Assembly: GCF_004010195.1 (NCBI RefSeq)
Contig: NC_057718.1
Span: 84,855,968-84,919,967, forward strand
Direction of reading: 5' to 3'
Length of the DNA stretch: 64,000 nucleotides
Origin: Chiloscyllium plagiosum
Taxonomy: Eukaryota
The translations under genes were made by a program, and so were the position numbers. Below the pieces are notes generated by a model that ran no database searches, had not been told where the DNA came from, and saw nothing but the letters and a program-made list of their open reading frames with translations. Of this stretch, positions 170 through 43,345 are shown piece by piece; position 1 is the stretch's first letter; each line of letters opens with the position of its first letter.

Positions 170-357
170 CATGTTGTAAATCAGAAACAAAAATAGAAGT
201 CACTCAAAGCTCAGCAGGTCTGGCAGTATCTGTGGAGAGAAATCAGAATTAACGTTTCAGGTCAGGTGGGCCTTTCCTCAGAATGCAAGCAAATGTTGTG
301 ACGAAGGGTCAGTCAACCTGAAACATTAACTCTGAACTCTCTGCACAGATACAAGCC
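170..357. mobile_element. Fold-back element made of two inverted Penelope-like termini
   Basis: Arms gtatctgtggagaga..cagaattaacgtttcaggt and acctgaaacattaactctga..tctctgcacagatac are reverse complements. Same sequence family as the PLE 3' end at 26035-26160. Confidence 0.7.
248..284 (-). ncRNA. Minimal type I hammerhead ribozyme motif (PLE-associated)
   Basis: Minus strand reads ATT-CTGAGGA-A-AGGCCCACCTGACCT-GAAA-CG-TT-AAT. It has the CUGANGA and GAAA cores, stem I ATT/AAT, stem II AGG/CCT, a palindromic ACGU helix III and a GUU site. Confidence 0.65.
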
Positions 358-959
358 ATTTGGCCCAACTGGTCTGTCTTGGTGTTTATGCTCTTCCGCA
401 ATACTATCACCAACATCTTTCAATCCTTAGTCTCTTTTTTTTTTTTAGTTTTCCCTTCAATATTTTTATGCTGTTCATCTCATCTGCTCCACATGGTAGC
501 AAGTTGCATATTTTGACCTCTCTCTGGGTAAAGACGTTCTCCTGATTAGAATGTATTGGTTTTCATCTTATATTTATGACCTCAATTTTTTGGATTCTTC
601 CACCCAATCATCCCGCAAGAAATGTGGAAGTATCTTTGCTATGTTAGCACTGTAAAAGCCCTTCATAATTCTAAAAGTGCTTATCGGGTCACATCTTCAG
701 CAACCTCTCTCTCAAAAAATAGCGCTCAGCTATTTTATCTTTTCTGATGGTTACAAACTCTCAGTTCTTACAAACCTCTTTCTCATCATATGCAGTTATA
801 CTTGTGTCCTTTTTGCAATATGGGCACCTATGCACAGAGTTCTAAATAGTCCGACAAAGTTCTATATAAGTTGAACAACTTCTCTGTCCATTTCCCTAGA
901 AATGAGCTTTAGTGCTTTGTTTGCAAAATGTTGAACTTCATAGCTATTTTTTTGAACAG

Positions 960-1081
960 ATGAGACATCCCTAGAAAGTGAATGTGCCAACATTAGCATC
1001 CAAACAGAGATGGCAATGGAGCAACTCAGAAGGCAGCATCAAGAGGAAGTGCAAGACCTTAAAATACAATTGGAAACAAAG
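960..1081 (+). CDS. NINL: Ninein-like protein, internal exon (..ETSLESECANISIQTEMAMEQLRRQHQEEVQDLKIQLETK)
   Basis: Acceptor tttgaacag at 951-959. Open frame joins in phase 0 to the next exon, giving QLETK|VNYYERE as I recall from vertebrate NINL. Donor is the non-canonical AAG|gcaagt. Confidence 0.85.
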
Positions 1082-1424
1082 GCAAGTAATTTTAGTCTTT
1101 TCACACTTCTTCACTTCCTACCCTTCCCCTATACAGTAACTATGCATAATTTTTAGACCAAAGGGCAGCCTCATGACAACAAGTTCCAGAAAATCAAATA
1201 TATCCATTTGAAAATGCATAAAAAGCTTTGGATTTAAATACAACTTATTCATGCTACTGAAGCCAACAAGATTGAGGGTTAATGGGACATCTCCTGGGGA
1301 GAGAAAGAAAACATTTTACTTAGTGGAAAAACTGAAAAGCATTAGTTGCTTTAGTCCAATTCTGCTGCAATCGTTCTGCAAGTTTCGAAATTAAAGGTGG
1401 GATAATGTTGTGCTTATTTTGCAG

Positions 1425-1945
1425 GTAAATTATTATGAGAGAGAAATTGAACTGATGAAGAGGAATTTTGAGAAAGAGAGGAAGTACGTAGAACAAAGCT
1501 TTAAGATTGAGATCGGCGAACTGGAGGACCAGCGTGTTACCAGGGAACATGAAATGGAGCGGCTTCAGGGTGTGGTGAATGAGTTGCGTGTTCAACAGCA
1601 AGATGCAGAAGTCCAGCAGGAGGAAACAATTGCTGATCTACTAAGGCGACATGAAACAGCCAAGCTAAACCTGCAAGAAGAGGTGAGGAAAGGACAGGAG
1701 GAAAAGTGCAAAATGGAGGAGCTGAAGAAGGACGCAGAGTTGACAAAAATGTTCAAAGCACAGTCTAAATCAAAATTGGCATTGCAAATACAAGAACTGG
1801 AAACAAAGTTCCAGTGGGAAAGGACAGCTCAACAGCAGGCCTTTGTCAAGGAGAAGTCAGAATTAGAGCTACGGCTGTCGAAGGAGAAGCTTGAAATGGA
1901 GAAGGAACTGAAACTCCAACATCAGAAGGAATTGCAGCAATTAAG
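1425..1945 (+). CDS. NINL: Ninein-like exon (VNYYEREIELMKRNFEKERK...ELQQLR)
   Basis: ttttgcag acceptor and AG|gtaggt donor. E/K/Q-rich coiled coil; VNYYERE..KRNFEKERK recognised from NINL. Confidence 0.92.
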
Positions 1946-2049
1946 GTAGGTTGTAGTGAACAGTATTTCCTTACTATAGACACAAGAGGGCATCATTAGG
2001 TCAAAGTGGGAACTGGAGATTAATATGCATATCTAGGTCAGTATCAGTT

Positions 2050-2228
2050 GTAGCAGCAAATTACTGTGGATGCTGGAATCTGTATTGAAAACGACATACG
2101 CTGGAGATTAGTGGGTCAGACAGCATCCATTCGAGCTGAAACGTTAGCTTACTCTCTCTCCCTCTCTCTCCCCCAGTGGAGGCTGCCTGACCTGTTGTGA
2201 TCTCCAGTGCTTTTTTGTTGTTGGTATC
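2050..2228. mobile_element. Decayed fold-back PLE-terminus element
   Basis: gctggagatt..gggtcagacagcatcca and tggaggctgcctgacc..gatctccagt form inverted arms; half hammerhead gctgaaacgttagc. Confidence 0.5.
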
Positions 2229-2623
2229 AATTGTAGCTCAGTTGGTGACCTTCTCACACTTGAGTCAGCATTTCCCAAACCTGAATCATCCAACCTCTGC
2301 AAGAATGAGGGCTGTAAGCATGGAAACACAATCTCCTGACTTGATCTGTTGTTATTCCTTCGTTGTTATTGAGTCAGAATCCTGTAAATTCCTATGTAAC
2401 AGCAAAGTTGAAGCATAAAGGAATGAACAGAAGCAGGAGTAGGCCACTCAGCCTTTCAAGCCTGCTCCACCATTCAGTTAGATTGTGACTGATCTTTTAT
2501 CATAGATACAGCTGCCTGCACTATCCACATACCCTTTGATTCCAGTGTTTAATATCCAGAAATCTATTAATCCCTGATTAAACTTTGCAAAAGGTTACAA
2601 CACTTTAAGTGAATAAATTTGAT

Positions 2624-2975
2624 ATAGAATAGAATGATATAGAATCCCTACAGTGTGAAAACCGGCCCTTTGGCCCAATGAGTCCACACTGACCCTCTGA
2701 AGAGTAACCCACCTGGACCCATTCCCCTAATCTACCCCAGATTAATACACCAAACCAACATATCCCTGAACACTGTGGGCAATTTAGCATGGCCAGTTTA
2801 CCTAACCTGCACATCTTTGGATTGAGGGAGGAAACCGGAGCACCCAGAGGAAACCCAAGCAGACACTGGGAGAATGTGCAAACTCCACACAGACAGTTGT
2901 CCGAGGTGGGAATCAAACCCGGGTTCCTGGTGCTGTGAGGCAACAGTGTTAACCACTGAGCCACTGTGCCGGCCC
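2624..2975 (-). mobile_element. tRNA-derived V-domain SINE (HE1-like)
   Basis: Minus strand: A-box ggcacagtggctcagtggtt, B-box gggtttgattccc, V-domain ctgtgtggagtttgcacattctccc..ggtgctccggtttcctccc, CR1-type tail ending in (TTCTA)n. Confidence 0.85.
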
Positions 2976-3739
2976 AACTTTCTCCTCAATTTGGTCCTAA
3001 GTGGCTGATTGCCTCATTCTGATATTATGACTTCTAGTCCTAAACTCCCCGGCCAAAACAAATGACCTGCACCTTAAGCCATACTGACTGCAGTAGTTCA
3101 AGAAAGCCTAGCACGTCTACTGAATCCTGATTCAGCAATAAATACTGGTAACACCATGCCCAAGAATTAATAAGATAACTGGTCTGTATATTTTCTTGTG
3201 ATCGATCGCACAAAAGTTAATTTTTCATCATTCTCTATACTTTGAGGAGCTATCCTTTGGGTGAGGCATTAAATTCTGTCCTCTTAGAAAAACACAAACG
3301 ATCCTGCACTACATAAACAGAAAAGGCAGGACCTTCCTGGTTTCTTGCCCATTACTTATCCTTCAACTAACAATTAATTATCTAGTTACTATTTCGTCTA
3401 CGTTCATGGAATCTTGCTGTATGTACATTAGCTGTACATTTCTTACATTAAAACAATGACTGTTCTTCAAAAGTATAATGTGCTTTGGGATATGCCATGG
3501 TTGTGAAATACTACCCTTTGTGAATGTTATTCATTTCTATTAGAATATTGGGGAATGGGGTGATTGGTATCATCAATTTGAATCTATATCTTGCTGTCTG
3601 ATCCAAGGTAATGTGACATGGAGAGTGCTTAATAGTCACTGCTGTTCTTGTAAATGCTATATTCCCAATACCCTTACAGAAATAATTGTTTTGAAGGTTG
3701 TTTTCTATAGTTTAATGAGAAGTATTTAAATATCCTTAG

Positions 3740-4393
3740 GAAGGCAACACAAGATGAATCTAACCTGAAGCTCTCACTTTTGGAAGCTGACCATGTTGCT
3801 TTAACACAAAAGTATCAGTCTGAGAAAACACAGCTGATCCAGGGATATGAGCTGAAAATTGAGGAGCTTACAAGACAACAGAGTCAAGAGAAAAGTCATT
3901 GGGAGTCTCATGTGCAGATGACTTGCAATGAGGCCAGGAAAGAAAAGCTAAACCTGCAGGAAAAGATGCATGAGGAACAGGCTAAGATCTGCAAAACATT
4001 TGCAATAGAGAGGGAAGAAATGGAAACCAAGTACAAAGAACAAATATGCAGTCTTAGTTGTGAGATCGAGAGCTTAAAGGCTCAGGTAAAAGAGCTAAGA
4101 AGAGTGAACGACATGGAAGATCTAACACATCCTGATGAAAAACCCACTGAGGACAACCCTTGCCTGTACCAAAGAATCCACATCCAGTCTTCGACCAATG
4201 AAGAGTGTTTTGCACTTTTAAAGAAAAAAGAAGATGAGATATTGGGTTTAAAACAGCAAAGAGATGAGATGGAAATAAAACTGAGGCAAGTAATGGATGA
4301 GTCAGAGAGAAAGGAGCAAGTGCTTCAAAATGAGGCAACGAATCTGCGGAGGTTGGTAACTAAGCTAGAAGCTGAGACTGAGAAGAAGTACAG
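3740..4393 (+). CDS. NINL: Ninein-like large exon (KATQDESNL...ETEKKYR)
   Basis: tatccttag acceptor and AG|gtttgt donor. Phase 2-2 is consistent with the neighbouring exons. Coiled-coil ORF 3780-4469. Confidence 0.88.
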
Positions 4394-5585
4394 GTTTGTC
4401 ATAATAATTATCTTCGAATCGCTAATGACCACATTACTTCTGCTACTAATCACAAGAATTGCATCCTAATCATGAACTGACAGTTAATCTCCTGTTAATC
4501 AAAATCGAGCATGCAAACCTTGTTTTCTTTTTGTCAACAATTAAAACTGATTTCTTCATCCTTGGCAACTGTTCAAGAATGAGGTTTCTGCAATGTCATC
4601 AGGTTTGCCTTTTCTGTGCCATTGTGCCTTGTCACTGCTAATTTGCAGGTTTACATGTAGTCACTTCCTACCTTTTCTGACTGCACTCTGGACCTATTTA
4701 TTTATATCCATTGCTCTCGCTGTGGATGAGCAGGAGAAGAGGTTAATCATACAGTGATCAGAAACTCTGCCAATATAAAGCAAGCTGCTCAGATTCCAAG
4801 ATGAAAATATATCTCAAAGACAATATGCTGTGGAATTTGAAGGACCCCTTGCATGGAAGCTGAGTGCTTTGGAGGTGCTCTTGTATCAGCTGCTTCAATT
4901 CATGAGAAGCATCTGTTAATCTCTAATTGGAATTTCTTGAAGCCCAAGTTATTTTCAGGCACTTTGCAATGTCCAATCTGATTTAGGTTAAAATTGAAAT
5001 TAGTAAGGGTGTTTGTTAATGCATTCATCTAAAACATTCCATTTGCAGGAATAAACTTATGAAAGTAAGTGAGCAAACATGGAATAATATAATCTCATAG
5101 CATGGCAGAACATTATTTGTAAAAGAGCTATCCAAATGGTCCCAATTTCTATTCTTTCCCCATGTCCTGCCTAACGTCTCCTTTTCAGGTGTTTGTTCAA
5201 TTTCCCTTTGAAAGTTACTATTAATTTGCTTCACCCAAGCTTTTCAAATGTCCTTATCACCCTCTAACACACATGACGTCAATGATGGTAGAATAGTCAA
5301 ATTTAACTTAATTTATGGATCATCTATGTCAGTTTTGGTGATGGTGGTAAATGTACTAAAAGCATGGAGACTATCTCTGCATGTCTGATATGATCACCAT
5401 GTCTTTCACTTACTTCCAATTCTTGCATTCTATGTCCATCATGATGAACAATATTAGACCAGATAAGAGTATCTGCAACATCAGGGCCAATATTTAGTGA
5501 TTCCCTAAATTCTGTACTTGGACCACTTCCTGAAATTCTCTAGAGGGTAGCTGTAGTTATTTGACAAGAATAATGTATTCCTTAG

Positions 5586-5690
5586 ATGTGAGTCTGAAAT
5601 GATCTCTGAAGAAAACTCTTCCTTGAAAAGAGAAATGGCGAAGTTTCATCAGGAGTTTCGGGATCTGGAAGGAGAAGTTAATGAACAAAG
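5586..5690 (+). CDS. NINL: Ninein-like exon (CESEMISEENSSLKREMAKFHQEFRDLEGEVNEQR)
   Basis: ttccttag acceptor, AG|gtaagt donor, 105 nt, phase 2-2; SEEN..LK motif. Confidence 0.88.
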
Positions 5691-5780
5691 GTAAGTTAGG
5701 TGGTGCTTTTGATGTTTTGCAAAACGCTTGTGTTTTTGGTGGCTGGAATTCCTTGTTTAAAAAAAGATTGTGCTGTGCAG

Positions 5781-5850
5781 GAAACAAGTGGAACACCTGC
5801 AAGATGAAAGAGAGCGCAGACGTAGAGAATCTGAAGAACTTCAGAAACAG
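5781..5850 (+). CDS. NINL: Ninein-like exon (KQVEHLQDERERRRRESEELQKQ)
   Basis: tgtgcag acceptor, CAG|gtaagg donor, 70 nt, phase 2-0 restores the frame for the next exon. Confidence 0.85.
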
Positions 5851-6224
5851 GTAAGGATTTGAACCTGTCACTGTTGGTTAGAAATGTTGTTTTGGGCTGA
5901 ACCAAAATCTGGTTTCACCGAAGCAATTTAGTGGAATAAGAATGACATTAATTGAATGTGATTTGACTAATCTAGTAGGTTAATTTGGTTCTTTGAAATT
6001 GACAGGTATTAAGTTACAGCTCTAATCTCTTGTCTATTAGGGTGTGATTATAAGTTGAACCCATGTAGATAAATTTAAAATGTTTCTTTGACATCTGCAA
6101 GAAAGTGATTTGAAGCTGTCTCATCCGTTCCTATTGGGTAGTTCTTTCTATGTTCAAAACCTCTGTGCCTCTTCCTCTGCCCTCTCTCGGCATTGTCTTT
6201 GGACCCCATGCAGTCTTATGTCTG

Positions 6225-7325: not shown

Positions 7326-7484
7326 CCCTTTTAGTAGTTTTTATAAGTTATTTTATAACCCTTTGCTAGTCTTTGTAGCTTTCCTATTCAGTCTAATCTG
7401 TGCTGTTTTTTGTAAGCCCTTTCTTTTAGTATTTTTCATTCCCTTATCTCTTTAGTTGTTCATGACCGTTAATACTGTGACTTA

Positions 7485-16480: not shown

Positions 16481-18643
16481 CCAGGGTGGGGTGAGAATGT
16501 GGAACACGTACCATATGAAGTGGTTAAATGAAATAACTCCAGGGAAAGCCAGATAAGCATGAGGGAAAAAGGAATAGAAGTTTTTCTAACTCATTCAGGG
16601 AATATGCACTTGGCTGACCACACCAGCACTTATTGCCTTTGAGAAAGTAGTGGTAAGCTGCCTTATTAAACTGCTATGGTCTGTTTTACATAGGTATACC
16701 AACAATGCCCCTGGGGAGTGAGTTCTAGGATTTTGATCCAGCAACTTTGAAGGTGCAGCAATTATAGTTCCAATTTTGAGTAATCCAAGATGGGGGACAG
16801 GAATAAAATTATGGCTTAAGAGCTGCTTTTTTTTAAGCATTTTCAGTTGTTGGAGCTGATTTCCTCAAGGTTTGGAGCAGGAATTACGGTTTTATAGGCT
16901 GTTATAAACTTTGAATCAAAATCTTAAAACAATAACATTTTTTAAAAAAGGAGGTAGAAAGCAGACACCACATGAGGGGCAATAAAACAGAGAAGTAAAC
17001 CTGCACGGCCATGTGACCCAGTAGTGAACCTGTATAGCTGTGTGACCAAGCAGTGACTGCCTCAGTTGTTTTAGTTTCAAGAATTTCTGGACATTGGAGT
17101 TCTTCTAAGTAAACAAACAGTGAAATTCACAGCTAACCTTCCAGAAACCTGTGTGGGAGCTCACAGCATGAGAGCAGCTAAGTGGGTTATTTTTAAAGTG
17201 TAACCTCAGTGTATTTTCTTGTAAGTCTACAGTGGTAAGTAGTAATTTTTTTATTAGATTATATGTTTAATTGAGATCTGTCTCCTGATTAAACTTTCAA
17301 AGTATAAAACATAGATATTAAGTTATCCTGAAGCAATGATTTTGAAGCAGTAAGACTCTGTTATTTTCTAGGTCTGTAGGTTAAGGTGCAAAGATGGCCT
17401 TCAGTAAAATGATGTGCTCTTCCTGTCAGATGTGGAAGGTTCGCGAGAGTTTCTGTGTTACTGATGATTATGTTTGTAGGAAGTGTTTTTGGTTGCGAAT
17501 CCTATCTATCGCATAGATCGGTTGGAGCAGCAGTTACAGGCAATGAGGGATTTACAGGAGTCTGGGAGTGATGATGGCAGTTCAGGAAGGGAGACAAACC
17601 GCAGATACAGACAGGTAGGTAGCTTGTAAGAGGAGTGGTCAGGTCATGCAGGAGTCTCCTGTCTCTCCATGTCAAACAAGTATGCTGTTTTGGAAAATGT
17701 AGGACTCTCGGGGCTATGTAGCACTGACAACCAGGTTTCTGGTACCAAGACTGGTAAAAATATAATGAGGAGTACATCAGGTTCCAAGCAATTCATTATG
17801 ATAAGGGACTCTTTAATCAGAGGCACAGATAAAGGTTTCTGTGGCTGACAATGAGATGTGTGTGTTGCTTCCCTGGTGCCAGGATCAGGGATGTCTTGGT
17901 GGGGGTGCAGAATATCCTGAAAGGAGAGATGGATAGCAGGTAGTCATTGTACACATTGGAAAACTAATGACATAGGATGAGAGAAGGACAAGTTTTTTGA
18001 AGAAGTAATGAAGAGGTTTGATGAGGGTATGTTGCTGAACAAAGAGATTTTGGAGTGCAGGTTCATTGTTCCTTGGAAGTGGCATCGCAGGAAGGTAGGA
18101 TAGGGAAGAAGGCATTTGGTATGGTTGCCTTTGTTGGTCAGGGCATTGTTATAGGAGTTGGGAGGTCATGTTGCGGCTGTACAGGATGTTGTTTGGGCCA
18201 CTTTTGGAATACTGCATGCAATTCAGGTCTCCCTGCTATAGGAAGGAGATTGTGAAACTTGAAAAGTAGCTGTAGGATGACTAGAGAAGTTGTGTTTTTG
18301 GTCAAGAATAAGAAGGAAGCATATATTAGGTATAGACAGCAGGGATCAAGTGACTCCCTAGAAGAGTATAAAGACAGTAGGATACTGAGGAGAAAAATCA
18401 GGAGAGCAAAAAGGGGACATGAGATGCTTTTGGCAGGTATGGCAGAATCCAAGGAGATTCCACAAATACATTAAGGACTAAAGAGTAACTAGGGAGAGAA
18501 TAGGGCCCCTTAAAGATCAACAAGCCCTCCTTTGTGTGGAACTGCAGGAGATGGGGGAGATACTAAACAAGTATTTTGTATCAATGTTTATTGTGAAGTA
18601 GTATATGGAAGATAAGAGGACATAGCAAAATAAATAGCAATAT

Positions 18644-18798
18644 NNNNNNNNNNNNNNNNNNNNNNNNNNNNNNNNNNNNNNNNNNNNNNNNNNNNNNNNN
18701 NNNNNNNNNNNNNNNNNNNNNNNNNNNNNNNNNNNNNNNNNNNNNNNNNNNNNNNNNNNNNNNNNNNNNNNNNNNNNNNNNNNNNNNNNNNNNNNNNN
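18644..18798. other. Assembly gap (155 N)
   Basis: Run of N. Confidence 1.
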
Positions 18799-18888
18799 AT
18801 TCTCCTGCTCCTTCGATGCTGCCTGACCTGCTGCGCTTTTCCAGCAACACATTTTCAGCTCTGATCTCCAGCAGTCCTCACTTTCTCC
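18799..18888 (+). mobile_element. PLE terminus abutting gap
   Basis: Reverse complement of ggagaaagtgaggactgc..ggagatcagagctgaaaatgtgttgctggaaaagcgcagc, as at 25127 and 48328. Confidence 0.8.
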
Positions 18889-19689
18889 TATCAGTTTGGG
18901 CATGTTTTTTGAGGGAATCCTGAGGGACAGGATTTACATCTATTTGGAAAGGCAAGGACTGATTCGGGATAGGCAACATGGCTTTTTGTGTGGAAAATAG
19001 TGTCTCACTAACCTGATTGAGTTTTTGAAGAAGTAATGAAAGTTCTGGGGAGTGTTGCTTAACAGAGAGACCTTGGAGTGTAGGTTCATAGTTTCTTGAG
19101 TTGCAGGTAGACAGGATGGTGAAGAAGGCGTTGAGTAAGCTTGCCTTTGCTGGTCAGTGCATAGAGTAAAGTAGTTGGGAGGTCATGTTGTGGCTGCACA
19201 GGACATTGGTTAGGCCACTTTTGGAATATTGCATGTAATTCTGGTCTCCCTGCTATAGGAAGAATGTTGTGAAACTTGAAAGGGTTCAGAAAAGATTTAC
19301 AAACATGTTGCCAGGGTTGGAGGGTTTGAGCTATAGGGAGAGGCTGAATAGACTGGGGATGTTTTTCCTGGAGCGTCAGAGTCCAAGTGGTTTTCCCCAT
19401 GGTAGCAGAATCCAAAACTAGAGAGCTTAGGTTTAAGGTGAGAGGGGAAAACTTAACTGGACGTAAGGGGCAACATTTTCATACACGGGGTGGTGCATGT
19501 ATGGAATGAAATGCCTGAAAAAATGGTGGAATCTGATACAATTACAATATTTAAAAGGCATCTGGATGGGTATATGAATAGGAAATATTTACAAGAATAT
19601 GGGCCAAATGCTGGCAAATGGGAGTAGATTTATTTAGGCTGTCTGGTCAGCATAGATGAGTTGGACCGAAGGGTGTATTTCCAAGTGAG

Positions 19690-25039: not shown

Positions 25040-25510
25040 TAGACCATAAGATATAGAAACAGAAATTATACCATTTGGCCCATCGAGTCCACTATGCCAT
25101 TTAATCATGGCTGATAGGTTTTTCAAGGAGAAAGTGAGGACTGCAGATGCTGGAGATCAGAGCTGAAAATGTGTTGCTGGAAAAAGGGCTCATGCCTGAA
25201 ACGTCGATTCTCTTGCTCCTTGGATGCTGCCTGACATGCTGCGCTTTTCCAGCAACACATTTTCAGCTCTGATAGGTTTTTCAACCCCATTTTCCCCACT
25301 TTCTCCCCATAACCTTTGATCCCCTTGGCAATCAAGAATCTATCTATCTCTGTTTTAAATATAATCAATAACCTGGCCACCATAACCTTCTGTGGCAATG
25401 AATTCCACAGATCCACTATTATCTGGCTAAAGAAGTTTCTCCTTGTCTCAGTTCTAAAGGGTCTTCCCTTTACTCTAAGGCTGTGCTCTTGGGTCCTTGT
25501 CTCTTCTGCC
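25040..25510 (-). mobile_element. CR1 3' fragment interrupted by a PLE fold-back
   Basis: TRTQEHSLRVKGRPFRTETRRNFFSQIIVDLWNSLP is the CR1 ORF2 C-terminus. Confidence 0.85.
25127..25273. mobile_element. Fold-back PLE-terminus insertion with target duplication
   Basis: Inverted arms atcagagctgaaaatgtgttgctggaaaa / ttttccagcaacacattttcagctctgat. ctgataggtttttcaa is duplicated at 25111-25126 and 25269-25284. Confidence 0.85.
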
Positions 25511-25619: not shown

Positions 25620-26170
25620 CCTCAGGGTCTTGAACTTCCAATTGCCTGCCATTTTAACATGCCACACTGTTCCCTGGCCAGCATTTCTGTCTCAGGCTTG
25701 CTCCAGCGAAGCTCTAAGAACAACACCTCATTTTCTGCTTCGGGACCCCAAAGCCCTCTGGACTCAATATCAAGTTCAGTAATTTTAGGGCCTGAACTCG
25801 CCCATGTCCTAACCCCCTAACTCTGCACACTAGGTCTTGTTATCACATTGTCTGCCTTTACACACTGCCTATTATTAGCCAACTAGGATCCATTAACAGC
25901 TATTCACCCTCCCAACCAGATTGTTATCGACTCCTTTCTTCTCTCTTTGAGCTCTTCCCTACCTATCATTTACTCCTTACCCCTTCCCCCAATCTATCTT
26001 CTGCATATTATCTGACATTTTCCTAGCTATCATCAGTTCTGAGGAAGGGTCACCAGACCTGAAATGTTAACTTAATTTCTCTTCACAGATGCTGGTAGAC
26101 CTGCTGAGCTTTCCCAGCAACCTCTATTTTTGCTTCTGATTTACAGCATTCACAGTTCTTTTGTTTTTTT
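25620..26170 (+). mobile_element. Penelope-like element 3' fragment (GIY-YIG C-terminus + terminus)
   Basis: HLIFCFGTPKPSGLNIKFSNF is a typical PLE endonuclease C-terminus, followed by a pyrimidine-rich UTR and hammerhead motif. Confidence 0.75.
26035..26072 (+). ncRNA. Minimal hammerhead ribozyme motif, helix III CpG decayed
   Basis: AGTT-CTGAGGA-A-GGGTC-ACCA-GACCT-GAAA-TG-TT-AACT; stem I AGTT/AACT and stem II GGGTC/GACCT. Confidence 0.6.
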
Positions 26171-28870
26171 ATAAATGTGTTGCTGTACCGAGTTGACTTT
26201 GCTTATTTGAAATGTGGGAAAATGTTGTAAGCAATCCCATTAGATCTTCCACTGTCAATAAACTTGAGCTCATTCAAACTTCTGCTGCTTGTATTTTAAC
26301 TTGGATCAGGTCCCAGTCATGTAACATTCATGTGCTTACTGATTTATGTTGGCTCCTGGCCCACCAACACACCTCATTTTTAAATTTAATCCTCTCATTT
26401 AATCTGTCTATGACTTTGTCCCTGTGTTTATAATCTGGTCTACTGCTATAACCCTGCAAGATCTCTGCTCTATTACTCTTTTCACTCTGTAAACCTCTTG
26501 TATTCCTTTGGGACACTCCTTAAAACCTAACTCTTTAATCGCCTTCAGTTAGGGCTGGGTCAGATTGTTTGGTTTTGCTCTTGTAACATGCCTTGGGAAT
26601 CCTTTTTACTACATTATGTTTCTGAAATGGGCAACTTCAGAATTGAGTTGTAGTAGGATCTTACTGATTATTTTTTTTGTAAGGGGGTTCGTTTCAAGTT
26701 GGTTTGGGCTTGGTGGATCACGTCAAGTGGGGTCAAGGGTCACTTGGAACATAGCAAAAGTTAGTCAGTGTGCCAATGCTATTGTCCAATGTAAAATTTT
26801 AAAGATGTAAAGTAAATTTGTTATTTGCTAACATGGAAGAAAAACTGTTACGATTGTTCGATTATAAATTGGCTTTTTTTTAAACCTATCTGTGATTTCC
26901 AAAATCTGGGATCCATGAATTTTGATTATTATTAGGCAAAAAGTTATGTTTGATTGCTCAGAAAATGTCTTGACGTTTGTTTACTGCCAACTTTCTGATG
27001 GCTGGATGTAAGACACAGTATCTATTTAAATACAAGAGTTGAGATTCCAGCTTATACAAACAGTGAGAGGCTTGGAATGCTTCTCATTACTTGAAGCTAT
27101 TCCAGAGCTGCCATTCATTCCTTTTTTAGTATATGTCAATAACAGCTATATTATCAGCTGTTACTGGTGTGGAAAATGAATGATGGCTTTGAAACAGAAA
27201 GGATCCTGTTTGTAGTAGAGCCATTTTTTGTCGACAGTGCTTTCTTTTAAATTGTTCCAAATAGAACTTCCTTTTCACTTCTTTCATAGCTTGTAATTGA
27301 ATGTCATCTAGTGATAGAAGAAATTGATTAATCTAACAAACACATGTAGACTGGGACTGCCATAGTGTTAAGGGTTGGGTGGAGAGGAATTTGTTAAGTG
27401 TGTACAAGAAAGTTTTCTGATTCAGTATGTGGATGTACCTACCAGAAATGTATGTGAATGTACCTACTAATGGGAAATAAGGCAGTGACGTGTTAGTGGG
27501 GGAGCACTTTGGGGCCAGTGACCATAATTTCTATTAGTTTTAAAATAGTCATGGAAAAGGAGAGGATGATTTAAAAGTTAAAGCTCTAAAATAGAGGAAG
27601 GCCAATTTTAATGGTATTAGGCAAGAACTTTCAAAAGTTGATTGGGGGTGGATATTTGCAGATAAAACTGTAAGACACAGGAGCAGAAATTAGGTCATTC
27701 AGCCCATTGGGTCCGCTCTGTCATTCAAACATGGCTGAAAAGTTTGTCAACCCCATTGTCCCGCTTTCTACCTGTAACCCTTGATCCCCATGATACTCAA
27801 GAACCTATCTATCTCAATCTGAAACTTACTCAATAACCTGGCCTCCACAGCCTTCTGTGGCAATGAATTTCATAGATTCATCACTCTGGCTGAAGAGGCG
27901 TTTCCTTATTTCCACGCCAAAAGGTCTTAACTTTACTCTAATCTGCGTCCTCAGCTCCTAGTCTGTCCTACCAATGGAAACAGCTTCCCAACATCTACTC
28001 TGTCCAGGTCATTCAGTATTCTGTATGTTTCAAGTAGCTCCCCCTCATCCTTCTAAACTCCATTGAGTGTAGATGCAGAGTCCTCAAACGTTCCTCATAT
28101 GTTAAGCTTTTCATTCTTGGGACTATTCTCGTGAACCTCCTCTGAAAATGCTTCAGGGCTCAAAACCGCACACATTATTCCAAACGTGGTCTGATCAGAG
28201 CCTTATAGTCTCAGAAATACATCCCTGCTTTTATATTCAAGTCCTCTCAAGATAAATGCAATCACTGCCTTCCTAACTACTGAGTCAACCTGCAAGTTTA
28301 CCTTGAGAGAATCCTGAAGTGGAACTCCCAAGTCTCTTTGCACTTAAGACTTCAGAATCTTTTCCCCATTTAGAAAATAGTCCATGCCTTTATTCGACCT
28401 ACTAAAGTGCATGATCTCTCACTTTCCCACATTGTACATCATCTGCCACTTTTTTGCCCACTTTTCTAACCTGAACAAATCCTCATGTAGCCTCCCTGTC
28501 TCCTCAATGCTGCCTGTCTCTCAATCTATCTTTGTACTGTCTGCAAACTTAGCCAGAGTGCCTCAGTTCCTTCACCTAGATGATTAATGTATCATGTGAA
28601 AAATTGATAAAGGGATGGCTGGAAAATGGGAAGCCTTCAAAAATGAGATAACAAGAGTCCAGAGACAGTATGTTCCTAATAGTGTGAAGGGCAAGGCCGG
28701 TAGCTGTAAGATGACTAGAGAAGTTGAGTTTTTGGTCAAGAATAAGAAGGAAGCATATATTAGGTATAGACAGCAGGGATCAAGTGACTCCCTAGAAGAG
28801 TATAAAGGCAGTAGGATACTGAGGAGAAAAATCAGGAGAGCAAAAAGGGGACATGAGATGCTTTTGGCAG

Positions 28871-29221
28871 NNNNNNNNNNNNNNNNNNNNNNNNNNNNNN
28901 NNNNNNNNNNNNNNNNNNNNNNNNNNNNNNNNNNNNNNNNNNNNNNNNNNNNNNNNNNNNNNNNNNNNNNNNNNNNNNNNNNNNNNNNNNNNNNNNNNNN
29001 NNNNNNNNNNNNNNNNNNNNNNNNNNNNNNNNNNNNNNNNNNNNNNNNNNNNNNNNNNNNNNNNNNNNNNNNNNNNNNNNNNNNNNNNNNNNNNNNNNNN
29101 NNNNNNNNNNNNNNNNNNNNNNNNNNNNNNNNNNNNNNNNNNNNNNNNNNNNNNNNNNNNNNNNNNNNNNNNNNNNNNNNNNNNNNNNNNNNNNNNNNNN
29201 NNNNNNNNNNNNNNNNNNNNN
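28871..29221. other. Assembly gap (351 N)
   Basis: Run of N. Confidence 1.
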
Positions 29222-30026
29222 TATCAGTTTGGGCATGTTTTTTGAGGGAATCCTGAGGGACAGGATTTACATCTATTTGGAAAGGCAAGGACTGATTCGG
29301 GATAGGCAACATGGCTTTTTGTGTGGAAAATAGTGTCTCACTAACCTGATTGAGTTTTTGAAGAAGTAATGAAAGTTCTGGGGAGTGTTGCTTAACAGAG
29401 AGACCTTGGAGTGTAGGTTCATAGTTTCTTGAGTTGCAGGTAGACAGGATGGTGAAGAAGGCGTTGAGTAAGCTTGCCTTTGCTGGTCAGTGCATAGAGT
29501 AAAGTAGTTGGGAGGTCATGTGACTGCACAGGACATTGGTTAGGCCACTTTTGGAATATTGCATGTAATTCTGGTCTCCCTGCTATAGGAAGAATGTTGT
29601 GAAACTTGAAAGGGTTCAGACAAGATTTACAAACATGTTGCCAGGGTTGGAGGATTTGAGCTATAGGGAGAGGCTGAATAGACAGGGGATATTTTCCCTC
29701 AAGCGTCAGAGGCTGAGGGGTGACCTTATAGAGATTTATAAAATCATGAGGGGCGCAGATAGGGTGAACAGCTGAGGTCTTTTCCCCAGGCTGGGGGAGT
29801 TTATAATCAGTGGATGTAGGTTTAAGGTGAGAGGGGAAAGATTATCAAAGCAACCTAAGGGGCAACTTTTTCATGCAGATGGTGGTGTGTGTATGGAATG
29901 AGCTGCCAGAGGAAGTGTCAGAGGCTGGTACAATTACAACATTTAAAAGACATCTGAATGGGTATATGAATAGGTACAGTTTAGAGGAATAGTGGGTAGT
30001 GCTTTTACCTGTCAGAACTACTTTAC

Positions 30027-30158
30027 AGGGTAAAAACAATGACTGCAGATGCTGGAAACCAGATTCTGGATTAGTGGTGCTGGAAGAGCACAGCAGTTCA
30101 GGCAGCATCCAAGGATTTCGAAGCTCCTTGGATGCTGCCTGAACTGCTGTGCTCTTCC
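30027..30158. mobile_element. PLE-terminus fold-back with perfect 34-bp stem
   Basis: 30082-30115 and 30125-30158 are exact reverse complements with a 9-nt loop; begins with gactgcagatgctgga like the other PLE termini. Confidence 0.85.
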
Positions 30159-30612
30159 TCTGTACCAGCCTCTGACACTTCCTCTAGTACAATTGCAACA
30201 TTTAAAAGGCAATTGGATGGGTATATGAATAGATACAGTTTAGAGGGATATGGGCTAAGTGCTCGCAAAAGGGACTGGATTAGGTTAGGTATCTGATCAG
30301 CATGGAGGAGTTGGACCAAAGGGTCTGTTTCTGTGCTGTACATTTCTATGATTTAGGTGAGAGGAGAAAGATTTTAAAAAAATTGCCCCCATGTCTTTTT
30401 TGTGTTTCCTGTATGGAATGAAATTCCAGAGGTGGTGGTGAATGCAGATACAGTTACAACTTTTAAGACAGTCCAGTAAGTACATGAATAAGAAATATTG
30501 AAGTTACATGGGCCAAGCGCAGGCAGGTGGGATTAGTTTGGTTTGGGATTATGGTCGGCGTGGACTAGTTGGAACAAAAGGTTTGTTTCCATGCTGTATG
30601 ACTCTTATTAGG

Positions 30613-30919
30613 TTAGATTAGATTACTTCGTGTGGAAACAGGCCCTTCGGCCCAACATGTCCACACCGACCCCCCGGATGCACAACCCACGCAGACCCAT
30701 TCCTCTACATTTACCTCTTCACCTAACACTACAGGCAATTTAGCATGGCCAATTCACCTAACCTGCACATTTTTGGATTGTGGGAGGTAACCGGAACACC
30801 TGGAGAAAATCCACAGAGACACTGGGAGAATGTGCAAACTCCACAGTCAGTTGCCTGAGGTGGGAATTGAACCCGGGTGTCTGGCGCTGTGAGGCAGCAG
30901 AGCTAACCACAGTGCCGCC
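30613..30919 (-). mobile_element. tRNA-derived V-domain SINE (HE1-like)
   Basis: Same structure as 2624-2975; (TCTAA)n tail. Confidence 0.85.
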
Positions 30920-33859: not shown

Positions 33860-33865
33860 AATAAA
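33860..33865 (+). terminator. Candidate polyadenylation signal for NINL
   Basis: First AATAAA after the stop; further ones at 34049 and 34769. Confidence 0.45.
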
Positions 33866-36204: not shown

Positions 36205-36279
36205 CTGGCTGTTTTTCTTCAGAAGCACTGTAGTACCATCATCAATTTCATATTCACCATAATCTTTCAAACACCTTAC
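36205..36279 (-). CDS. GINS1: GINS1 exon 6 ([25 protein letters not shown])
   Basis: cttttag acceptor, CAG|gtaata donor, 75 nt; Psf1 B-domain sequence. Confidence 0.96.
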
Positions 36280-36929: not shown

Positions 36930-37510
36930 CTCTTCCCTTGGCAATTCTGCAGCAAAGATTTAGGAATATTGTCCTCATTGGTTGCAGGCCTGCTGGTGGC
37001 TAGTGAGGCTTATGACTGGCATGTTTTTCCACATTGGGTGCTGAAGGTGTAATTGCTGCTGGGAACAATGGATCTATCTTACTTATTTTCTCTTTCATAC
37101 TGGTTCTTCGTTCAATCTCAAAGGTTACCGTAGCATTCCCACCGTGTTATCTCCAAAAATCAGGATCTATGACTAACACCTCCCGATGGCGATGGTCAAC
37201 GTGACATAAAGGAGTGGGATTTGAAATACTTACGTGGGACCCCTCTGTTCTATTTACCCATGGTCAACTCACCATACAACACTATCTTGGCAGATGACCA
37301 TCCACCTGATGAACATGATCCATGCAACACAATTGGCATTGCAGGAGAAGGGCTGTTTCCAGGACTTCAATGTTCATGATGCAATTCTGCCAGCAGATTT
37401 AAAATAAGCTATGTAAGCAGTGCCGATGGAGCATGTGACAGTGATGGATCCCATGTCCTGGCACCACAGAGAAGGGTGATGAGGACTACAGCCTTATACA
37501 TTTTGATCTT
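36930..37510 (-). mobile_element. Decayed RTE-clade LINE 3' fragment
   Basis: Minus strand YKAVVLITLLCGARTW motif typical of the RTE post-RT region. Confidence 0.65.
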
Positions 37511-38435
37511 GGTCTGTTAGTTGCTCCACAATTTTTATTAGAGTCTTAAACATTGCTAGAAGTGAATAAGTAGTTGGAGCTTTTTATCCTATACTTACCA
37601 TTCCTAAGAAAAACTACTTCTAAACAAGGACACCAATTTGTACAGCATGAGAGAAGGCTGCTGGTTGGGCCATCGTTGGCATGGACATGCAGCAAGAACA
37701 GTCAACTGTAAACCTTGGTTCTTAGACTAGGTAGATAAGACGCTGGTCAGGTTGGTGCCATGGGTGTATAGAAAATATTGAAAAAATGGTAATGGAGACT
37801 CCTAGTACAAAACTTGCAATACATGTATAAATTACTTTTGCTTACATAAAACAGAGTCCTGTGTATTAACGCATGCAGAAGTGAATCACGCTGTGAGCTC
37901 AACTAATAGACTGGTTCCTGGCACAATTCTTAGGACAGTCCAAGAATCCAAATTATCATCATGCCAATACAGGCCAGCCAATCAACACCCTCTTATGTTA
38001 TATAAAATAGTACTCTGTTCCACTGCTCTAAACCCCTCCCCTCTGAACACAGTAAAGATAGTGTCTCAAAGTGGAGTGTATTATTTCCCCTTCCAACTCT
38101 ATTTTGATTTAACCCCTGCCCTCCCCTTCACTGTTTGATCATGCAGCAATGCCCCTCTGTGAAGGGCACTTGTCACTGGCCACCCTGGTGTTTCCTTTCT
38201 TCCTGGTGGTGGAAATCGAATAAAGGTTTGTACAGCTGTGGTCTTTCACTGTGTCTCACACCTGCACACACAACATGGGTGCTGGGGAAAATATAAGCAC
38301 TACCACAGTTAGGCAGTAGTGTAGGGGTTTCAAATAAAGATATATATGGTGATTTAGAGTTTCCTCAGTTTAAGGTACTGACTCTGTGCTGGCTGGTGCT
38401 ACAGTCAGTGTGATCCTGCTGTTGTTGGTTTCTGC

Positions 38436-39340
38436 AAAAATAAAAGTCTCCCTTGTCCTCACTTACCACCCCACCAGTCTCCGGATCCAATACATCATCC
38501 TTAAACACTTCCACCAACTCCAACTCAGCCCACAACCAAGAACATCTTCCTCTACCCATCCCTCTCTGCCTTCCGCAAGGACCGTTCCTTTCAACAGTCC
38601 TTGGTTTGTCTCATTCTCCCCACCAACCTCTCGGAAACCCGAGGTACCAGAAAAGATGCAAAACCTGCCAGTACACCAACTCCCTCATCTCCATCCAGGG
38701 CTCTAAATAGGCCTTCCAGGTGAGACACAGGTTCACCTGCCTCCCTTCCAACCCAGTTTACTGCATCAGGTGCTCCCGATGTGATATTTTCTACACCGGG
38801 GAGACCAAACGTAAACTTAGAGAATGATTCGCTGAGCATGTCAGCCAGGCCCGCAGGGGCTGATCGGACCTCCAAGTCACCACTCGTTTAAATTCCCCTT
38901 CCCGCTCCCTTTCCAACATGACCATCCTTGGCCTCCTCCACTGCCGCAATGAACCGAACTGCAAATTGGAGGAACACCACCTCATCTTCCACCTGGGCAG
39001 CCTACAGTCCGGAGGACTCAACAAGAGTTCTCCAATTTCAAATAACCTCCCTTCCTCCGACTTCCTTCCCAGCCCCTTCCACTCCTCCCAGCCACCTATC
39101 AAATTCATTCCTCCCAATGATCAACCAAGTATTCTCGGCTTGTCTTCACCTATCTCCACTTCATCACCCTGCCCCTGCCACCCCTTTTACCTGCAGCTCC
39201 CCCTACACCCATCCCTAGTCCTGAAGGGTTACACCCGAAAACATCGATTTCTCCACCTCTTAATGCTGCCTGGCTTGCTGTTTTCTTCCAGCCTCCTGTC
39301 TACCCACTTTGGATTGCAGCATCTGCAGTTTTGTTTTTTG
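38436..39340 (+). mobile_element. Penelope-like element 3' half with GIY-YIG endonuclease (pseudogenised)
   Basis: LVLTYHP, CKTCQY, FTCLPSNPVYCIRCSRCDIFYTGETKRKL..FAEH and EEHHLIFHLGSLQSGGLN. Terminus has a deleted hammerhead core at 39217-39250. Confidence 0.9.
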
Positions 39341-39369
39341 TCTCATTATGATAAGGAACCAGGATGAGT

Positions 39370-40250
39370 AGCCAAGCTTTAAGGACTTTCTGTTCAGTAT
39401 CAAATGCCTTGGTGAGGTATACAAAGGTGGCAAACTAGCCTTTATATTGCTCTCACATTTCTTAATATTTGTAGTTTGAAAAAAATAATGTCTGTGGTCC
39501 CTCTGTCAATCTCTGAAACTTCATTAGCTCTCAGAAGTTTTCTTCTGCAAAGATAGGTACAAGCCTGTTCATATGTATTCAAGCCATGATCTTCCCAGCA
39601 ATAGAACAGAGGGTGATACCACAGTAGTTGGAGAAGTCTGACTTCTCTGTTTTTGCACTAGTGTATAAGAGCAGCATCATGAGATCCAGTGGTATCCTGC
39701 TATTTCCAAAAGGCCATGGAGGTTGGCACATAGGATAAGCTATCATTGTTCAAAACTTCAGATGGAATTTCACAGACTCTGAAAGCTTTAGTGCTCTTCA
39801 TCTGGTTGATGCAGTCAGGTTCCTCCTGAGTTGGGCTCTCATCAAAATGACAGTTATTTGACACAGTTATTGTTCTTTTATATCCTTTGTGTTTGGTATC
39901 AAAAGTGCACTGACCAGCAATCCAGGACTAACTAACTGTCGATGTATAGCATCTTACTATTGTGGTCCACAATACAGTGTAGTGCACTTTTGATTCAAAA
40001 TAGGATGGTTATTTGAACCACTTGTAATCTTTCTGCCTTGATTGTTATCTTTGTCAAGGAGGACATCTAATCTGGTGGTGTTCATAATTTCTCCTATCAA
40101 TTTACCCATCAGATGAGACAACGGGCAGTTGGAGCCTGCAATGAGAGTTGGACATAGCTGAGGACCAATGATTCCAGTCCACCCTACATGTAGGATGCAA
40201 CTGATTGAAAACGCAAGGAGGCTACATCTAGCTGAATACCCCATACTGAT
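39370..40250 (-). mobile_element. Decayed RTE-clade LINE, RT N-terminal fragment (same element as 36930-37510, split by insertions)
   Basis: Minus strand EKSDFSNYCGITLCSIAGKIMA..MNRL motif. Confidence 0.65.
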
Positions 40251-40700
40251 CTATACAAACTCATTTAACATTTGAAGACCTCAAGAGGGGAAGGGAGTTC
40301 ATACCACATGGACTGGCTGTAAAATTTGAAATTTCATACTAAAGGGTATACTTGGGCTGCCTTACATATGAAGAATGTGATAGGAATATACTAGTTTAGT
40401 TTCTTCAGAGCATATGAAACCAACATTAGGGAGAAATTTTTTTTGCTGTTTCAGGAGTCACTGTCATTTTCAGAACTTTATTCAAGTGACAAAACTGTAA
40501 AAGAAATACATTTTATCACTGCTTCATGTGCAGATTTGTTAAAAATTATGAATAAGTTCATTAGACAATACACCACCTTACTTCAGATATTAGAATTTGA
40601 TGTGTATTAAGGATGCTTCTTCAGGAGCCACAATGATCAATATTCTTCAGTTTACAGTTGAAACTTATGCACTGGTCACTAAATTCAAGTTATGACTTAC

Positions 40701-40817
40701 TTCAATAAACAAACTTTTTGGAGGTTTCATATCTTGAGTTATATCCAATCCTCCTTCACCTCCAATAGACCTCATGTATGTGGCAAGTGACTTTTTGTAC
40801 TGGTTGAACCATTCAGT
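40701..40817 (-). CDS. GINS1: GINS1 exon 5 ([39 protein letters not shown])
   Basis: Poly-T plus ccactgcag acceptor, GAA|gtaagt donor, 117 nt. Confidence 0.96.
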
Positions 40818-41689
40818 CTGCAGTGGAAAAAAAAAAATCAAACTTACACAAAAGGAACTACTGAAACTGAATAATTACAAGAATAGCAGTGTTGCACAGA
40901 AAACCTCAGGAAAACTACCCCATGAGGAGAATACTTCAGGAATTCCCCAAACCCAACTTTACTGGCTAGGAACTCCACCTTTAAAAAAAGGTTCAAACAT
41001 TCTGTTTTGTGCCACACAGTTTATATGGTCAGCAATTTGATAAACTATCTAAAATGTTAAAGCCAGCATACATTGCCCTGCCTAGTAACCTTTTGTTATT
41101 ATTTTTGCAATGGTTTAAATGACTTGTTTGGTCACTTCAGAGACAGTTCAAGAGTCAACCATGTTGATATGGGATTGGTGTTACATAAAGGCTAAACTGG
41201 GTAAGGACACTAGGTTTCCTTTATGAACCACTTGGATTTCACAAGAATACAACTTCATGCTACTCAAGACTTTGCTTTTTCTAGATCATTAGCCAAGGTC
41301 ACTGGAATAATCTAGTAACATACTATAATATGATCACAGCCTTCAATGTAGAAATGTTAAAACTTAACAATAACATGGCATTTAAATAGCATCTTTAACA
41401 CTAAAATTATCAAAATGGAGAAATTATCAAACAAAATTAGACACTGAATCAGGTAAAGAGATCAACAAAAAATGTCAGGTGAATTCTTCAAGCGAGAACC
41501 AGGACAAATAGGCTAATTGGGGAATGTAAAGGAAAATAAGACTAGCAAATAAAAGCATTAGAACTGAATGGCAGTAACACAAAAGGGAACCCAGCAGTCT
41601 TCTACTGACAGTTAAGTGAGTAATAAGTAGTGGAGTGGGCCTATTGAGGATACAGAGTGTGACATATTTAGTGGTGAAGGGCAAGGCTG

Positions 41690-43345
41690 GAATACTTAGT
41701 AGACATCAATGCCAAACACTTTAGGAAATTACATGGTTTAGCTTGTATCTCAGGTTGCAGGAGTAGAGATAACAGAATGTTTTGCTGTAATCCTCTAACC
41801 TACCCTTGATATGCAGAAGGCCAGCAGATTTGTAAATGGCAGATACTGCTTCACTAACCTAATTGTTTTATTTTTGAAGTAGTAACAACACAGAAAGTTA
41901 AAAAAAAAGACAAAGAACTACACAAAATGTTGGTGAACTAAATTCTCTCACAAAATAGATCCTTAGTGCAAAGTTGGATTATAAATATTGGTTTAAGGAC
42001 AGAAAATATAGCAGTTTGTGCTAAGTGGTTAGTTTTCAAACTGGAGGATGGTAAACAGTGGTATTCCTGGAACAAGGAATAAAATTTCAAATCTAGTGAT
42101 CATACTAAATTGGGGAAGTGGCAATCAGTGAGGTTATTACTGATCAACTGCAACAATTGGGTAATCCAGCAGATTGGAAAGTAGTTTATGGAAATAAACA
42201 CAAAGAAATTGATTCACCCCAGGATTGGGAAAGAAAATACAGATTAAATGGCAGTTATAAAGAGTGTATAGGGACAGTGGGGCTTGACTGGGTGTATGGA
42301 GATAGTTCTTTGGTGGCAGGACAAATTGAGAATAATTAGTGAAGTAAAATCTAAAGAACTTCAGATGCTGTAAATCAGAAACAAAAGCAGAAGTTGCTGG
42401 AAAAGCTCAGCAGGACTGGTAATATTGGGTTCTGAAGAAAGGTCACCAGACTGGACATGCTAACTTTGATTTCTCTTCATAGATGCTGCCAGATGTGCTG
42501 GTAATTAATGAACATTTTAGGATCTCTTAGGTTTTATAAAGAAAGACACAGAGTTAGGAAAGTTATGCTAAATCTTTAGAAAGCTCTGGTTAGGATTTGG
42601 CCATAACTGTAATAGTATGTCAAGTTTCTGCCACTACACCTTATGAAGGATTTGAAAGTCCTTGCAGAGACTTACCAGAATGGTTCCAAGGCTGATGTAT
42701 GTTAGCTACAAGGTTAGTTTGGAGAAGCTGGGGTGGACATCTTGGTAGTGATATTAAATAGATCTGTACAAGATTAGACAGATTTGGAGAAAGTGACGAC
42801 TGCAGATGCTGGAGATCAGAGTCGAGGAGTGTGGTGCTGGAAAGGCACAGCGGGTCAGGCAGCATCCAAGGAGCAGGAATGTTGACGTTTTGAGCATAAA
42901 CTCTTTGTCAGGAATGAAGAGCTTAGGAGCAGGAGAGTCAATGTTTTGAGCATAAGCTCTTCATTCCTGACAAAGAGCTTATGCTCGAAACGTCGACACA
43001 CCTGATCCTTGGATGCTGCCTGACCCGCTATGCCTTTCCAGTACCACATTCTTCAAGACAGATTTGGATAAGGTAGACAAGGAAAAACCTCGCTGGCAGA
43101 TGGCTCAAGGATTTGTAGACAGACGTGCAAGGGGAAGAACATTTTTATACTGCGATTGTTAACGACCTGAAAATTGTTGTCCAAGAGGGTGTTGGAAGCA
43201 GAAATCAGTGATTTGAAAATAGAAACGGGATGGGTGCTGGTTGGAAACAAGCACTGAAGAACTAGAGGGATATAGTGAGAAGATGGAGTGGCTGGATTAC
43301 TCCAAGAGGAGATGGAACGAATGCCTTCCTTTTGTGTTGTAAATG
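41690..43345 (+). mobile_element. Highly decayed CR1 with two PLE fold-back insertions (42350-42500, 42786-43052)
   Basis: Degenerate RT motifs (cttcactaacctaatt, gttatgctaaatctttagaaagctctggttagg) and a CR1-like 3' end. Confidence 0.6.
42786..43052. mobile_element. Large fold-back PLE-terminus insertion with inverted hammerhead-like motifs and target duplication
   Basis: ~95-nt inverted arms. cctgacaaagagcttatgctcgaaacgtcga lies at 42966-42996 and its inverted copy at ~42882-42912. agacagatttgga is repeated at 42776-42788 and 43056-43068. Confidence 0.85.

Follow-up and report, generated by a model that had tools for sequence, protein, structure and literature searches.

Short Two-Armed Insertions in a Shark Genome Are Probably Abortive Insertions of Neptune-Type Penelope-like Elements

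A stretch of 64,000 nucleotides from Chiloscyllium plagiosum (NC_057718.1, positions 84,855,968 to 84,919,967 of the forward strand; hereafter the window) contains seven short insertions, or stubs, each of which consists of two head-to-head pieces of one and the same Penelope-like element (PLE) 3′ end. We conclude that these stubs are probably abortive insertions of autonomous PLEs of the Neptune type, with double priming of reverse transcription as the main route. They are a new instance of a described PLE layout and ordinary insertion debris: the short extreme of the known combination of an inverted truncated copy and a one-sided tail, with no open reading frame (ORF) left. All results on stub structure refer to these seven copies from one window, several of which are 15–30% diverged.

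A profile of PLE ends found 19 matches in the window. These belong to the six inserts that an initial annotation had described as two opposite pieces of one PLE end, which are present with refined limits, and further to a seventh two-armed copy, three one-armed copies, and one end beside a gap of undetermined bases (N gap). In the following, arm positions are counted back from the PLE terminus in minus numbers, with an error of a few bases. Exactly one arm carries the tail in all seven stubs. The other arm stops 30–77 nt before the terminus, at −30 to −38 in four copies and deeper (−54, −63, and −77) in three. The arms overlap by about 10–100 nt in every copy, and the upstream reach of the tail-bearing arm never exceeds that of the tail-less arm, being shorter in four copies and about equal in three. 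In four stubs (E25126, E2050, E42346, and E46500), each arm contains sequence that is absent from the other. This finding excludes simple fold-back for these copies, since one self-copied cDNA would be insufficient to produce them. Older copies show arm-to-arm divergence of 13–29%. The stubs fall into at least four sequence subfamilies, and no two of the seven have an inner junction in common. All are single, and the window contains no tandem units. Several arms contain an ATG followed by about 25 in-frame codons at the same place, a putative ORF start inside the pseudo-long terminal repeat (pLTR). The earlier statement that the inserts have no ORF is therefore right for frames of protein length and overlooks these codons.

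The copies differ in detail. In E170 (148/152–352), a tail-bearing arm at about 148–283 (PLE sense −, −1 to −132) is followed by a centre of 10–11 nt and a tail-less arm at 295–352 (sense +, −133 to −77). E2050 (2057–2226) combines a tail-bearing arm at 2057–2127 (−), which extends to −78, with a tail-less arm at about 2131–2226 (+; −113 to about −33). In E25126 (25127–25273), the tail-bearing arm at 25127–25184 covers −1 to −58 and the tail-less arm at about 25183–25273 covers about −120 to −30, with a 29-nt arm overlap that matches at 29/29 positions. E42346 (42346–42500) has a tail-bearing arm from 42346 to about 42428, which reaches about −72/−80, and a tail-less arm at 42429–42500 (−133 to −63). 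The tail-bearing arm of E42783 (42786–43057) at 42786–42924 extends to about −130; an additional 37-nt antisense piece (42925–42961) separates it from the tail-less arm at about 42962–43057 (−130 to −37). Immediately upstream of the ribozyme core, both arms of this copy contain one identical non-native junction. Past this junction (42900–42975), the tail-less side runs on for 37 nt and the other side for 8 nt. The seventh copy, E46500 (46501–46646), is degraded and has the mirror orientation: a tail-less arm at about 46501–46572 (sense −) covers at least −93 to −34, and a tail-bearing arm at about 46600–46646 (+) extends to −44. The profile matches of its arms have E values of 8e-6 and 0.11, and the position of its inner end is narrowed to about −93 to −107. 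Finally, E30027 (30027–30158) has a tail-bearing arm at 30027–30115 that extends to −84, then a 9-nt loop and a 34/34 inverted copy at 30125–30158 (−86 to −54) nested in the range of the first arm. The host DNA next to it (30161–30185, −) is a perfect 25-nt inverted copy of 29908–29932, where the longest chance match in 491 controls measured 16 nt. An 80-nt host duplication of 85% identity follows (29925–30003 versus 30184–30263).

Most stubs have target-site duplications (TSDs) on either side. The search for duplications near the stub boundaries was repeated identically at 400 random position pairs. E25126 has an exact 16/16 TSD (25111–25126, +, and 25269–25284; 0/400 controls as good), and the first 5 nt of the right copy are identical to the element's own sequence. 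The empty form of this target is found in a paralogous host repeat (27671–27975), which contains the 16-mer once. E42783 has a 13/13 TSD (42776–42788 and 43056–43068) inside a 17/19 match, again with 0/400 controls as good. These are the two duplications that had been reported before as overlapping the element end, and both proved exact; three more had been missed. E2050 has a 13/14 duplication (2041–2054 and 2224–2237; 1/400 controls as good), E170 a 13/15 duplication of which the right copy overlaps the arm end (133–147 and 344–358; 2/400), and E42346 a 10/11 duplication (42333–42343 and 42502–42512; 7/400). An 8/8 duplication at E46500 (46493–46500 and 46647–46654) is weak: 7/400 controls match its score, and the 8-mer also occurs in the stub centre. 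No short duplication was found at E30027, where 371/400 controls were as good. TSD length thus varies, with 16, 13, 14, about 15, 11, and (weakly) 8 nt.

On sequence evidence, the stub ends derive from an endonuclease-positive PLE of the Neptune type, an assignment in which Neptune and Nematis are not separated by a tree. Searches with tblastn located a GIY-YIG domain on three window copies, each followed by a pyrimidine-rich untranslated region and then the same kind of terminus. The best remnant (P0001, two stops read as X) matches Pfam GIY-YIG with an E value of 0.003, which is below the curated cut-off. A Pfam search of the window frames without stop read-through gave no PLE domain, and a word-based protein search with the remnant found nothing. 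A HMMER search with the same remnant returned 1173 relatives at E ≤ 0.001, matching the C-termini of proteins of 810–880 aa. Seven relatives were scanned; all contain GIY-YIG and four also RVT_1, and among the long (810–880 aa) relatives scanned two of three contain both. The 38447 copy has a degraded CxxC-type Cys motif ahead of GIY-YIG, which is intact in the close relatives P0002 and P0008. Such a motif upstream of GIY-YIG distinguishes Neptune and Nematis from Poseidon (PMC8557442), and hence indicates the Neptune type. P0002 itself is a predicted 272-aa protein with a DUF4518 domain joined to the PLE GIY-YIG end, a fusion that could reflect either a capture or a chimeric gene prediction.

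The reference copies are all 5′-truncated. The first (38447–39343, +) comprises the GIY-YIG remnant, the upstream Cys motif, a pyrimidine-rich 3′ untranslated region (UTR), a degenerate minimal hammerhead, and the terminus; no inverted end was found on it. A copy of the 25126 subfamily (48328–48897, −) contains a GIY-YIG end, 3′ UTR, hammerhead core at 48450, and terminus at 48328, and one of the 170/42346 subfamily (25632–26168, +) contains a GIY-YIG end, 3′ UTR, hammerhead core at 26039, and terminus. TSD searches at these three ORF-bearing copies gave no credible duplication. A young end of the 25126 subfamily lies at 18799–18888 (+), with its 5′ part hidden by an N gap (18644–18798). Pattern scans gave 0 matches in metagenomes and 0 in viral contigs. 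A looser pattern matched four loci over the 22-nt pattern only, and these were dropped as chance.

The initial annotation had proposed that the template was a ribozyme-processed RNA. A predicted minimal type I hammerhead, defined by a core, helix II, and a short palindromic closing motif, was found by pattern at 281 (−), 26039 (+), and 48450 (−); the same search also gave a variant at 42967 and two false matches. The motif lies about 125 nt from the PLE terminus, its helix II varies in sequence with pairing kept (by eye), and it resembles the minimal hammerhead described in PLEs (PMC4209133). Rfam gave no hammerhead match at E 5, and four ribozyme motifs, when folded as single strands, scored no better than shuffles (z −1.0 to +0.35). 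Since dimers are reported to be necessary for minimal hammerheads, such folds say little; sources on pLTR promoters and dimeric cleavage are PMC6765202 and PMC2377424. The predicted cleavage site follows about −96 to −100. Among the 12 arms of the six inserts first described, none turns at this site and seven cross into the 5′ half of the motif, which argues against a processed template. Those six stubs include one intact core (E170). The earlier observation that each copy turns at a different point holds for the inner turns, but five arm ends in three copies (E170, E42346, and E42783) lie 2–5 nt upstream of the ribozyme core. It is possible that this stop is the RNA 5′ end, giving a strong-stop-like product. 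Short inverted or shared matches are also present at this position, so that a hard stop and microhomology are indistinguishable there.

We also compared one part of the window (42200–48950) with three contig sets (X1, X12, and X18) and one raw poly(A) single-cell RNA run (X21), four of 24 listed runs. X1 may come from the very sample that was assembled; X12 and X18 stand under other organism labels. Contigs of X1 bridge both outer junctions of E42346, the left one being bridged in X18 as well, and the right junction of E42783 is bridged in X1, X12, and X18, hence under three organism labels (more than 30 letters on each side of the E42346 junctions in X1 and of the E42783 junction). Among the contigs listed, none bridges an inner junction of the stubs in this part. 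At the terminus, loose contig ends that belong to other loci accumulate (1156 in X1, 1277 in X12, and 927 in X18). A second pile lies at 42827 (521 in X12 and 406 in X18), where the letters are element-like to about −30 and then mixed. We read this pile as a genome-wide second end at the start of the tail. At 42964, X12 and X18 each have about 500 contigs that leave and continue with presumed native sequence, which indicates that the E42783 junction is not the family norm. The joints between contig pieces all link two repeat copies among the 15 of 1825 listed. Just outside the terminus (42786), about four bases of the loose ends are shared among all four runs. This could place the true outer start site a few bases beyond that point, or it could reflect a short target preference. 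Summed contig depth over the terminus is about 100,000 times that of the unique flanks, which is not a copy number. The PLE family is very abundant in this lineage.

How might such insertions arise? In the mechanism that we favor, the GIY-YIG endonuclease would introduce staggered nicks about 8–16 nt apart. One nick would prime cDNA synthesis at the outer start site and so produce the tail end, and the other would prime either close to −30, at an inner site, or deeper inside at a short match. Both cDNAs would abort after 45–135 nt, their 3′ ends, in some cases following a short snap-back, would be end-joined on scant homology or none, and gap filling would create the TSD. The template would be uncleaved PLE RNA, and the hairpin would be a by-product of the overlap between the two cDNAs. 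E30027 would be an exception: the perfect inverted host copy and the adjacent host duplication suggest that a DNA-templated switch was needed at this site.

Double priming is supported by the four tail-less ends at −30 to −38 and by the second contig end pile near −30. Five to six of the seven stubs show the geometry of twin priming, with two inverted cDNA segments in one TSD, where one and two RNA templates are indistinguishable. Outer microhomology is exact over 5 nt at E25126, partial at E170, E2050, and E42783, and absent at E42346. The earlier proposal of target-primed reverse transcription with fold-back or template switching is retained as to origin and strand switch, while pure fold-back explains at most three copies.

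Several observations weigh against double priming. For X1, the listed rows do not include the second loose-end pile. Three tail-less ends (−54, −63, and −77) miss the second start site, and E42346 lacks outer microhomology. The arm overlaps, present in all seven stubs, exceed the median of 12 nt known from L1, so that the model has to invoke strand displacement or a second copy of the RNA. E170, E30027, and E42783 are near-symmetric and equally compatible with snap-back. The in vitro evidence discussed below comes from a Poseidon-clade element, not from Neptune. Finally, the sample is small and partly diverged, and its junction calls may be off by a few bases.

A more specific version, ordered double priming on one RNA, is put forward tentatively. 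Here, the second target strand would prime at the inner site ahead of a trailing, displacing first reverse transcriptase (RT); variants with a strong stop or with recopying at E42783 are included. This version predicts a tail on one arm, as found in all seven stubs (probability about 0.002 if the strands chose sites independently at the loose-end ratio), and a tail-bearing arm that is not longer upstream, as found in four informative copies (1 in 16 by chance). The same non-native turn in both arms of E42783 implies either a snap-back of both cDNAs at a single place or an earlier stub as the template; E42783 may therefore be a recopied stub.

An unlikely alternative is self-priming, in which a cDNA would snap back at a short palindrome near the ribozyme core and copy itself, with a later one-sided deletion of the centre as the cause of asymmetry. 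Palindromes at inverted junctions and a close self-priming proposal have been published (PMC3846280), the fully nested 34/34 arms of E30027 fit this scheme, and a 4-bp inverted match occurs at the equivalent place in the 170/42346 subfamily. In E42783, both arms turn at a 3-bp inverted match (CAT/ATG) beside the core, as judged with the native continuation taken from the loose ends, but the arms themselves read CA at the pairing position, so that the match rests on the family majority and not on this copy. Self-priming would further require an additional one-sided deletion of 35–60 nt in four of the seven stubs, always in the tail-bearing arm and even in the young E25126 with its 29/29 arms and 16/16 TSD. 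By itself it does not predict the second end pile near −30, and the E170 turn has 10–11 extra bases.

We consider it improbable that the stubs form a self-propagating non-autonomous class, whose two-armed transcripts (linear or circular, and processed by the ribozyme) would be recopied by the PLE protein. It is true that every stub keeps the full terminus with the presumed start sites, that pLTRs can mobilize sequence in trans (PMC3846280), and that retrozymes derive from pLTRs (10.64898/2026.07.22.740005); the identical non-native junction in both E42783 arms is the sole support from the window stubs. Yet precisely at this junction, some 500 contigs of X12 and a similar number of X18 continue natively, none of the junctions is common to any two stubs, the subfamilies each have their own, tandem units are missing, and neither the single intact core nor the turning points of the arms fit a processed RNA. 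The retrozyme-like class suggested at first is thus not upheld. Assembly or library artefacts at a high-copy repeat are a very improbable cause. N gaps occur in the window, one of them beside a young PLE end, a 98% duplicated block lies near E30027, and the inner junctions are bridged by no listed contig. E30027 is the most suspect copy, with perfect arms and a perfect inverted host copy. Against this explanation stand TSDs with an empty paralogue, the arm divergence in older copies, and the contig-bridged outer junctions of E42346 and right junction of E42783. A MITE (miniature inverted-repeat transposable element), that is, a DNA transposon with PLE-derived terminal inverted repeats, has a negligible probability. 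The stubs are short and non-coding and have inverted repeats and flanking duplications, but the inverted repeat never extends to both ends, the duplications vary from 8 to 16 nt, and lengths and junctions all differ. On this point, the initial annotation was correct.

Several described systems come close to the stubs. In Pen2a_Av, a PLE is accompanied by an adjacent inverted pLTR with a 31-bp tail on one inverted end and a 9-bp TSD (PMC3846280), and PMC8557442 generalizes this layout (scheme in its Figure 2 legend). These endonuclease-positive PLEs share with the stubs a head-to-head inverted truncated copy, a TSD of variable length (8–10 bp in the PLEs), a tail at one end only (30–40 nt in the PLEs), and a pLTR that covers the first ORF codons, putatively so in the stubs. 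Unlike them, the stub copies are cut to 45–140 nt without an ORF, and three tail-less ends are deeper than the tail. The origin of inverted pLTRs and one-sided tails is debated, with self-priming (PMC3846280), endonuclease resolution (PMC8557442), and two-strand extension (PMC11167929) as proposals. Twin or dual priming of L1 (PMC12016303, PMC2837659) has a comparable geometry: two opposite cDNAs in one TSD, microhomology where the second is primed (in the stubs exact at E25126 and partial at three others), slight or absent homology where the two are joined inside, and cDNA overlap, the latter in 42% of germline L1 twin-priming cases (PMC12016303). In contrast to L1, the stubs have no poly(A), no L1 endonuclease motif, and a preferred second start near −30, and each of them shows overlap, which exceeds the L1 median. 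In vitro, the protein of a Poseidon PLE from Anolis cuts and extends both strands, and ribozyme cleavage is unnecessary (PMC11167929). The tail of this element is bounded by two neighboring internal RT start sites at the start of its ORF, which fits the stubs; this element belongs to another PLE clade, and the consulted parts of PMC11167929 do not discuss inverted genomic products. Animal non-LTR retrozymes, reported in one chondrichthyan genome (10.64898/2026.07.22.740005), resemble the stubs in that they are derived from PLE pLTRs, non-coding, and equipped with a type I hammerhead motif. They are head-to-tail tandems with a complete ribozyme per unit, whereas the stubs are head-to-head and single, with mostly broken or partial cores. 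In the searched literature, which covered few subscription papers or repeat databases, we found neither a description of the minimal stub form from sharks nor a model of twin priming in PLEs.

The window is animal DNA of 35–46% GC with CR1, SINE-like (short interspersed nuclear element), and gypsy-type remnants across its 64 kb. The exon at 1425–1946 is 100% identical to the ninein-like protein named by NCBI for Chiloscyllium plagiosum, and this host gene, NINL, spans 956–33763 (+) with ten coding exon matches, the final one reaching the last residue of the protein. E170, E2050, E25126, and E30027 are the only stubs among or just before the mapped exons; E42346 and E42783 are more than 8 kb beyond the last coding exon. 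A PDB search with a host exon found no match. Two blocks (18266–19381 and 28700–29711) are 98% identical and have N gaps (18644–18798 and 28871–29221) at the same point, where the first block carries the young PLE end at 18799–18888. One locus may have been assembled twice here, or duplicated recently, and the gaps may conceal a hairpin insertion. Elsewhere, a 19/20 direct repeat (57541–57560 and 57621–57640) surrounds a 14-bp perfect inverted repeat (57580–57593 and 57607–57620). This structure has no PLE similarity and resembles a small insertion of the templated or hairpin kind that is accompanied by a long duplication. An AT-rich imperfect palindrome at 59590–59645 (75% over 56 nt) is also without PLE similarity. 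Degraded gypsy-type RT fragments lie in opposite orientations at 54800–55417 (−) and 60586–61046 (+), with an RVT_1 match of E 3e-18 for 55100–55417, and three copies of a SINE-like repeat (2653–2962, 30630–30916, and 63835–64000) are 69–76% alike.

The initial annotation had also placed long double-stranded RNA hairpins in pre-mRNAs. Fold z-scores were calculated against shuffles, and for the longer stubs only 148–150 nt were folded (205–352 for E170). The one long hairpin is that of E42783, with 111-nt arms, about 110 bp, and a z-score of −23 on the plus strand; it is located beyond the NINL stop codon. The stubs other than E42783 and E42346 have stems of about 29–58 bp with z-scores of −3 to −13, namely −11/−13 for E30027, −7/−9 for E170, −5/−6 for E25126, and −3.9/−3.3 for E2050. 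E42346 has no stable hairpin, as 150 nt of it folded no better than shuffles (z −0.1 and +1.2). As to length, the claim stands for one hairpin; as to pre-mRNAs, it goes too far. Rfam gave only sub-threshold miRNA matches on the E42783 hairpin and two weak matches elsewhere. In the RNA run X21, most unique flank bins have zero depth, and other copies supply most of the reads that fall on the stubs (69/4065 at ≥99% identity). The mismatch places on the stubs (A>G 47, T>C 48) are thus uninformative for these loci. The minority of stubs with long arms could be substrates of ADAR or Dicer.

As a class, the stubs carry little weight. They are useful as a source of data that records how a PLE inserts, since both ends, the inner join, and the TSD all lie within 150–270 nt. 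Ordered double priming, if true, would explain for all PLEs why the tail is one-sided and why the pLTR is inverted.

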